Part shown: piece after piece, positions 1-248 of the stretch
How positions within the stretch are numbered: the first letter of the stretch is position 1
Layout: each line of letters opens with the position of its first letter
DNA from: Escherichia coli
GTDB lineage: Bacteria > Pseudomonadota > Gammaproteobacteria > Enterobacterales > Enterobacteriaceae
Length of the DNA: 396 bases
Assembly (NCBI RefSeq): GCF_003334355.1
Contig: NZ_QOWP01000109.1
Direction: 5' to 3' (one strand)
Program-made: the position numbers and the translations under genes
Notes under the pieces: model-generated
The model's database searches: none
Told to the model about the DNA's origin: nothing
What the model saw: only the letters and a program-made list of their open reading frames with translations

Positions 1-19
1 TATCGTGAGAGTAATTCAT
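1..19 (-). CDS. insL: IS186 transposase (InsL), 5' end only: start codon plus five codons (MNYSHD) visible; the rest lies outside the window.
   Basis: Minus-strand ATG at 19..17 followed by AAT TAC TCT CAC GAT = M N Y S H D, matching the N-terminus I recall for the IS186 transposase (MNYSHDNW...). It sits at the expected distance inside the IS186 terminal repeat. Too short to call on coding statistics; the call rests on recognising the element. Confidence 0.55.
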
Positions 20-74
20 CGGCACGTTAAATCATATCAGGCGTAATACCACAACCCTTAAGTTAGCGCTTATG
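1..74 (-). mobile_element. IS186 (IS4 family) terminal segment, partial; the element continues beyond the window start. Terminal inverted repeat at 52..74.
   Basis: Plus 52..74 caacccttaagttagcgcttatg is the reverse complement of CATAAGCGCTAACTTAAGGGTTG, which I recall as the 23-bp perfect terminal inverted repeat of IS186. The minus-strand sequence continuing inward (TGGTATTACGCCTGATATGATTTAACGTGCCGATGAATTACTCTCACGATA) matches my memory of the IS186 end leading into the transposase start. Sequence identity is from recall, not a database search. Confidence 0.8.
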
Positions 75-95
75 GGATTACTCCCCGAACAACGG

Positions 96-248
96 CTACT
101 TCTTCGGTTCGTAAGCGAGAACAGCCTTAAACTCAATATTACGTTCCTTCACCGTAAACTCACACAGCGAGTCTCCGACCAGAAGCGTAAATCCCAGCAC
201 CGTTAAACACAGCACTATGACTGCCGCAAGGGCATATTTCGTCAGCAT
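96..248 (-). CDS. hokE: Hok/Gef family type I toxin, a small membrane-depolarising peptide, 50 aa: [50 protein letters not shown]
   Basis: Minus-strand ATG at 248..246 and TAG stop at 98..96 (complement of plus cta). The translation has the Hok family hallmarks: a hydrophobic transmembrane N-terminal half, the conserved SLCE motif and a C-terminal ...AYE... tail. It is near-identical to the E. coli HokE sequence as I recall it. GGAGG lies 10 nt upstream. The IS186 end 21 bp downstream matches the known K-12 hokE arrangement. This is the C-terminal 50 codons of the 95-aa track ORF. Confidence 0.9.

Follow-up and report, generated by a model that had tools for sequence, protein, structure and literature searches.

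The hokE-IS186 junction in Escherichia coli: a co-directional arrangement that is probably incidental and probably leaves hokE mRNA without its 3′ elements

The first 98 bases of the window, the whole 396-nucleotide stretch of E. coli DNA that was analysed, very probably form the junction of the chromosomal hokE/sokE type I toxin-antitoxin locus with a 1339-bp IS186 element whose orientation is incidental and which leaves the hokE mRNA stripped of its 3′ elements. The open reading frame list and the sequence place the hokE coding sequence of 50 codons at 248..96 on the minus strand (ATG 248-246, stop TAG 98-96). The ATG of the IS186/IS421 transposase is at 19-17 on the same strand: the annotated CDS start at L001 4378 maps to window position 19, and the sequence 19..1, ATGAATTACTCTCACGATA, is the annotated transposase start. 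The original prediction, which put the hokE stop (96) and the transposase ATG (19) on one strand and 76 bp apart, thus was right in coordinates, strand and spacing. The 76-nt gap (95..20) is not plain spacer, as 75-95 are hokE 3′ flank and 20-74 belong to IS186. The loci used for comparison are L001 (hokE with IS150 and IS186), L002 (the IS-free allele of ATCC 25922), L003, L004 and L005 (hokE, hokC and hokA of K-12), and L006 (AR_0061) and L007 (ST540), in which IS186 is reversed. The features of the window are as follows.

1..19, minus strand: first 19 nt of the coding sequence of transposase insL (IS186/IS421), MNYSHD..., at an annotated start that is identical in K-12 insL2.
20..51, minus strand: untranslated left-end stretch of IS186 that separates the terminal repeat from the transposase ATG, from the sequence.
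52..74, no strand: 23-bp terminal inverted repeat of IS186, CATAAGCGCTAACTTAAGGGTTG on the hokE strand, matching exactly at both element ends.
75..84, no strand: copy of the 10-bp target-site duplication, GGAGTAATCC on the hokE strand, with the same 10 bp at the far IS186 end in L001 and L003.
75..95, minus strand: what is left of the hokE 3′ untranslated region, 21 nt that formed the left arm of the GC-rich target hairpin, from the intact allele L002.
96..248, minus strand: hokE coding sequence, 50 amino acids plus stop, a Hok/Gef membrane toxin, from the open reading frame, Pfam and RefSeq annotation.
249..284, minus strand: hokE translation-initiation region, placed by the sequence, the fold of 330..60 and analogy to annotated mokC and mokA.
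256..284, plus strand: sokE promoter TTGCCT-17-TACCAT, from a relaxed scan and literature hexamers.
292..319, plus strand: first 28 nt of the sokE antisense RNA gene, from the K-12 sokE annotation (L003 2234-2293, minus strand).
317..319, no strand: copy of the 3-bp IS150 target-site duplication, CCC on the hokE strand, from the L001 junction compared with K-12.
320..396, minus strand: right end of IS150 with the transposase stop TAA at 348-346, co-directional with hokE, from annotated IS150 transposases and K-12 IS150.
363..396, plus strand: 15-bp hairpin within IS150 with a T run just past the window edge, from the terminator scan and fold.

The window is identical at 395 of 396 bases to E. 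coli B (REL606, BL21), E. coli C and many isolates, and from 319 to 1 it is K-12 sequence except at base 88. The arrangement of the locus is already annotated and described: it is a textbook case in which insertion sequences have disabled chromosomal hok genes, and the value of the present description is mostly bookkeeping. The window is a member of the hok/sok family by virtue of its toxin gene, but it does not hold an intact regulatory locus. The toxin matched Pfam PF01848 (HOK_GEF) with an E value of 9.2e-8 over model positions 1-42 of 42, which places it in the Hok/Gef family, and the coding sequence is identical to that of RefSeq HokE WP_000956455.1 (strain 300709). The NCBIfam Hok cut-offs were not reached by the HokA equivalog (47.7 bits, cut-off 89) or the Hok subfamily model (38.9 bits, cut-off 73), neither of which is HokE-specific; PGAP names HokE by other means. 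A GGAGG motif at 263-259 is positioned ahead of the hokE ATG, and a mok-like in-frame ATG at 284-282, 12 codons upstream, falls within a hairpin predicted in the fold of 330..60. Residual hokE function despite the IS insertions is possible, because the reading frame is perfectly conserved across IS-bearing lineages whereas a fully dead gene might decay. That hokE mRNA exists in K-12 follows from its 40% A-to-I editing (PMC12214031).

The element at the 3′ side of hokE has the properties of IS186 of the IS4 family, namely 23-bp inverted repeats, a length of ~1.34 kb and a 10-bp duplication, GGAGTAATCC, in L001 and L003. The full element is 1339 bp with the 23-bp repeat exact at both ends in L001, L003, L004, L006 and L007. 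It is annotated in K-12 as IS186B at hokE with a boundary 3 bp further out than the repeat. IS186 is located 21 bases past the hokE stop codon. In the IS-free allele of ATCC 25922 (L002) the target, which starts only a few bases past the hokE stop, forms a perfect hairpin rich in GC, TGCGGGGAGCAATCCCCGCA. The target consensus of IS186 is GGGG(N6/N7)CCCC. On direct reading, the intact hokE target (GGGG-AGCAAT-CCCC) and the hokC target (GGGG-AGTGAT-CCCC) both fit this consensus. IS186 is pictured as having entered a GC-rich stem-loop of the form GGGG-N6-CCCC just 3′ of the hokE stop and left a 10-bp duplication; its position would be set by target choice, and its co-directional orientation would be incidental.

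Base 88, which is within the leftover arm of the IS186 target hairpin, is A on the plus strand and T on the hokE strand, where G is found elsewhere. The variant was absent from all 5426 complete genomes searched, K-12 and B included, and the best identity over the hokE/IS186 junction in this set was 99.0%; either a sequencing error or a private mutation may account for base 88. A strict scan detected no promoters in the window. Under relaxed hexamer criteria the sole candidate at the IS186 left end was weak (TTAAGG-19-TATGAT, 61..31, 8/12 matches), and inspection of the sequence revealed no Shine-Dalgarno motif before the transposase ATG.

The co-directional junction of hokE with IS186 was present in 1741 of 5426 complete E. 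coli genomes. A flank-specific query detected IS186 reversed at the same 10-bp site, with its transposase convergent on hokE, in a further 286 of the 5426. IS186 thus occupies the hokE site in about one-third of complete E. coli genomes and is in the opposite orientation in ~5%. A reverse-orientation count of 1059 obtained with a synthetic junction query was rejected, as the homologous hokC/IS186A junction cross-matches. An intact hokE hairpin was found in about 3400-3650 of the 5426 genomes; the upper value of 3647, which together with 1741 and 286 exceeds 5426, probably counts second hokE-like copies, and listing by spread suggests ~3400. At least 80% of the window was covered in 1818 genomes compared to the 1741 with the co-directional junction, and the ~77 genomes of difference may carry IS150 at hokE without co-directional IS186, for example with IS186 reversed or absent. 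The reversed element spans 3551-4890 in both L006 and L007, and occurs both with IS150 (AR_0061, in which the transposase is frameshifted) and without it (ST540). At the lon promoter, one site receives IS186 either way round (PMC3045373). That hokE and the IS186 transposase point the same way is chance at an IS186 hot spot and not a selected coupling: the orientation is incidental because the reverse occurs at the same site in 286 genomes, because the hokC element is convergent and because the lon site is entered either way.

The two orientations at hokE alternatively might descend from one ancestral insertion that was followed by inversion in situ or by recombinational exchange, instead of from two insertions at a hot spot. 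The position and the 10-bp duplication are identical in both orientations, as such a history would produce, and the two duplication copies in ST540 (L007 3541-3550 and 4891-4900) are one base apart, GGAGTAATCC and GGAGCAATCC, which hints at recombination or gene conversion across IS186 in the region. However, no inversion mechanism mediated by 23-bp repeats is known for IS186, the homologous hairpin of hokC has been hit independently, and the precedent of one lon-promoter site used in either orientation is documented (PMC3045373). A single insertion with later inversion consequently is viewed as rather unlikely, and separate insertions at the hot spot are preferred.

R1-type hok mRNAs are known for a closed 5′-3′ architecture. 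The intact hokE mRNA of 413 nt was predicted to fold with a minimum free energy of -187.6 kcal/mol (z = -8.75 versus shuffles). In this predicted fold a 3′ element located ~55 nt past the stop, AGGCACCUGC, is paired to the ten bases at the mRNA start, GCGGGUGCCU, and a 14-bp terminal hairpin forms 3′ of this fold-back element. Both the 3′ fold-back element and the terminal hairpin are absent from the window, and in IS186-bearing genomes they are situated beyond the element. Insertion of IS186 has split the post-stop hairpin and moved the fold-back element and the terminal hairpin 1.34 kb away, so that transcripts crossing hokE would run into IS186 and end at undefined places. The 5′ side is affected also. 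With a gathering score of 59, Rfam RF01794 gave 82.3 bits for the intact allele but 24.4 bits for the window, the low value arising because IS150 removed the 5′ partner and the upstream leader hairpins; a complete hok leader is not present in the window, where IS150 replaces its 5′ half. The hokE message of the window presumably is translationally silent. The arrangement is that which the literature treats as inactivation of hokE by an insertion element: passages of PMC12214031 and PMC7337300, after Pedersen and Gerdes (1999), have hokA, hokC and hokE inactivated by insertion elements near the toxin frames.

Despite its name, 'sok', the Rfam family RF01794 matches not the antisense Sok RNA but the leader of the hok mRNA (L002 2925-3075, hok strand). 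This leader begins with the 5′ end of the mRNA and extends to the hok ATG; its counterpart in the window is 240-396, minus strand. Within the RF01794 hit of the window, the 5′ half was discounted as a spurious alignment of the IS150 hairpin, and Rfam matches to mir-1990 and algC in the intact locus were dismissed as chance with scores far under gathering.

The replacement of the leader is due to the right end of IS150 at 320-396, which was absent from the earlier note and is identical to the right end of K-12 IS150. Its insertion point, which falls within both the hokE mRNA leader and sokE, is 72 bp ahead of the hokE ATG. L001 reads ...tatcaaccc, TGTACTGCACCC...GGTCAGTACA, ccctgggg across the insertion, whereas the uninterrupted K-12 sequence is tatcaaccctgggg. 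The TGTACTG... termini, the CCC duplication and the right end shared with K-12 identify IS150 of the IS3 family, annotated as 'IS3-like element IS150 family transposase, programmed frameshift' (orfAB). The IS150-hokE junction occurs in 550 of 5426 complete genomes. Both the promoter of hokE and its LexA box are outside the window, beyond the ~1.4-kb IS150; the LexA box is perfect, CTGTATAAATAAACAG (L001 2509-2524), and just upstream of the hokE mRNA start. The LexA-boxed promoter, IS150 orfAB, hokE and IS186 insL share one direction. As IS150 is upstream of hokE, transcription into hokE comes through or from IS150. In this E. coli B/C-like strain type, IS150 removes the 5′ half of the leader, shifts the LexA-controlled promoter by 1.4 kb and truncates sokE after 28 nt.

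The K-12 annotation has SokE as an antisense RNA of 60 nt, with a 5′ end that falls at window position 292. Only 28 nt of the gene are left in the window, the other 32 nt, which in the native SokE fold include the right arm of the terminator hairpin, having been displaced by IS150. The window accordingly holds the sokE promoter and 28 nt but not an intact antisense gene. The promoter hexamers, 7 nt upstream of the annotated K-12 sokE 5′ end, were seen only under relaxed scan criteria plus literature support: TTGCCT/TACCAT in the ybdK/sokE spacer is a constitutive sigma-70 promoter in SELEX (PMC3946193). The hairpin at 363-396 in IS150 matched in the terminator scan (L001 4034..4000, minus strand; fold z = -3.1) and is predicted to be terminator-like for transcripts from the sokE promoter. 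The intact promoter would yield a chimeric RNA of ~112 nt comprising 28 nt of SokE and the IS150 right end (window 292-396, plus strand; L001 3988-4105, minus strand), which probably ends at the 15-bp hairpin and U run (window 363-397). The chimera would be fully complementary to any transcript reading from IS150 into hokE. The hokE signal in REL606, which carries IS150, is log2 1.2 to 1.9 (2.3-3.7-fold) above that in MG1655 (PMC3446290). The higher signal is consistent with transcription from IS150 or with the loss of normal SokE, and proves neither.

The properties of the gap bear on whether transcription continues from hokE into the transposase gene. A consensus scan detected no terminator-like sites between the two genes compared to 0.3 expected from shuffles, and the junction RNA 130..1 folded no better than shuffles (z = -0.44). 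The earlier claim that the gap has no recognisable intrinsic terminator therefore is borne out, but the scan is insensitive: applied to the intact locus it gave no sites and so overlooks the native hokE 3′ end, which makes 'no terminator' weak evidence. Nor was a canonical terminator detected on the strand of hokE over the span that starts at the hokE promoter, crosses IS150 and hokE, and reaches almost the end of insL. The composition of the gap led to the rejection of a Rho-loading site there, as the 76 nt contain 15 C and 21 G and are not C-rich; Rho-dependent termination inside insL is possible. With no terminator and G in excess of C in the gap, transcripts crossing hokE therefore would gain IS186 sequence. 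The acquisition of IS-derived 3′ sequence by the hokE mRNA, as originally proposed, appears to be essentially unavoidable for such transcripts. Read-through from the hokE promoter itself, a further part of the original prediction, holds insofar as the path into IS186 is unobstructed, but its premise about the promoter is wrong for this sequence, in which the promoter is outside the window and 1.4 kb away behind IS150.

Published K-12 data do not show a 3′ end within the gap, and they do not show hokE and insL2 to be fully co-transcribed. The identifier b4700 presumably is an older entry for sokE. The hokE unit in K-12 SMRT-Cappable-seq is b4700 with b4415 and is without insL2 (b0582), and the library captured hokE transcripts among cDNA selected at >1 kb, longer than the native mRNA of ~0.4 kb (PMC6131387). 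No 3′ end in K-12 Term-seq tables is labelled hokE, sokE or insL2 (PMC7815308). Together the K-12 data suggest that transcripts enter IS186 and do not cover insL2 fully. A literature search on hokE with insL or IS186 found no paper on read-through. hokE is listed among the classical LexA-regulated genes, yet its level in RNA-seq of K-12 with AZT was 0.47-fold and it was not induced (PMC11228462). An effect of read-through on transposase expression, which the original prediction also entertained, is possible but unsupported, because hokE was not induced by AZT and the transposase ATG is not preceded by a Shine-Dalgarno motif; any contribution to the transposase would be expected to carry small weight.

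Transcripts crossing hokE instead might stop in or just after the 76-nt gap by a non-canonical or Rho-dependent route, in which case IS186 would supply a new short 3′ end and read-through would not occur. The inability of the consensus scan to recognise the native hokE 3′ end, a minimum-energy fold that pairs 38-100 of the 130-nt junction RNA, and the incomplete coverage of insL2 by K-12 hokE transcripts all are compatible with such a stop. It is nevertheless considered quite unlikely: the junction fold (z = -0.44) has no hairpin followed by a U run, a gap with G in excess of C is poor for Rho loading, the Term-seq tables have no 3′ end labelled hokE or insL2, and hokE transcripts are present in the library selected at >1 kb. 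At the other extreme, transcription across hokE, whether from the LexA promoter as in K-12 or through IS150 as here, might measurably raise transposase levels and so link IS186 to hokE expression or DNA damage. The common strand, the 76-nt gap that is not C-rich and has no consensus terminator, the perfect LexA box, CTGTATAAATAAACAG, upstream of the hokE mRNA start, the listing of hokE as a classical SOS gene with a heterology index of 4.9, and the appearance of hokE transcripts in cDNA of >1 kb though the native mRNA is ~0.4 kb all favor such a link. This functional coupling is very unlikely given that insL2 is not part of the SMRT-Cappable-seq hokE unit, hokE is at 0.47-fold with AZT without induction, the transposase ATG has no Shine-Dalgarno motif, the reverse orientation at the same site and the convergent hokC element give no sign of selection, and the promoter is 1.4 kb away behind IS150 in the window. 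Thus, read-through into IS186 with an undefined end, and without a selected role for the transposase, is the preferred reading.

Were read-through from the SOS-controlled hokE promoter to increase the amount of transposase, IS movement would be tied to DNA damage; the present data lend no support to this. In an extended and highly improbable version, DNA damage could drive read-through from the LexA promoter across IS150 orfAB, hokE and insL and couple the SOS response to IS150 and IS186 transposition, with the ~112-nt SokE′-IS150 antisense RNA still able to restrain hokE. The least ordinary residue of the analysis is the population polymorphism in IS186 orientation at one site, along with the speculation that an SOS promoter might feed two co-directional transposase genes. 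For those who annotate or engineer K-12, B and C strains, the shared direction of the transposase should not be taken as a sign of an operon, and the hokE mRNA of the window is without both its 5′ and its 3′ control elements.

The closest described relative is K-12 hokE/IS186B (insL2), in which the position, orientation and 10-bp duplication of IS186 are the same as in the window. The leader, promoter and sokE are intact in K-12, whereas the window adds IS150 at base 320. The K-12 locus is read as hokE inactivated by an insertion element in those parts of PMC12214031 and PMC7337300 that follow Pedersen and Gerdes (1999, Mol Microbiol 32:1090). E. coli B (REL606, BL21) and E. coli C cover 396/396 bases at 99.7% identity with the same IS150-hokE-IS186 order, and their hokE loci differ from the window at base 88 only. 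Evolved derivatives of REL606 repeatedly acquired IS150 in hokC, hokE-like and mokB regions (PMC5419217).

Two other K-12 loci parallel the two insertions separately. At hokC/IS186A (L004 1506-1560), a homologous post-stop hairpin, GGCGGGGAGTGATCCCCGCC, carries IS186 at the same relative position with a 10-bp duplication, although the transposase is convergent with hokC and not co-directional as at hokE in the window; at hokC the same structure was struck independently. At hokA/IS150 (L005 501-540 and 1976-2012), the mok/sok control region upstream of the hok gene is interrupted as in the window, but the distance from IS150 to the downstream ATG is 32 bp instead of 72 bp, and the element is oppositely oriented instead of co-directional. 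IS150 splits mokA and sokA in K-12, and both are annotated as pseudogenes. The hokA post-stop hairpin, GGCGGGAAATTATTCCCGCC, has not been hit by IS186.

The tac/fbi folding pathway is the mechanism of hok/sok of plasmid R1. The intact hokE mRNA is predicted to resemble the R1 system in having a 5′ end closed on a 3′ element together with post-stop and terminal hairpins, and in the native fold SokE likewise has a 5′ tail and a terminator hairpin. The window, in contrast, is without the 5′ and 3′ partners, and so the R1-type activation pathway should be unable to operate. For IS186 itself, the lon-promoter site, although a different locus, is like hokE in presenting a GC-rich palindromic target at which a single site is used in either orientation (PMC3045373).
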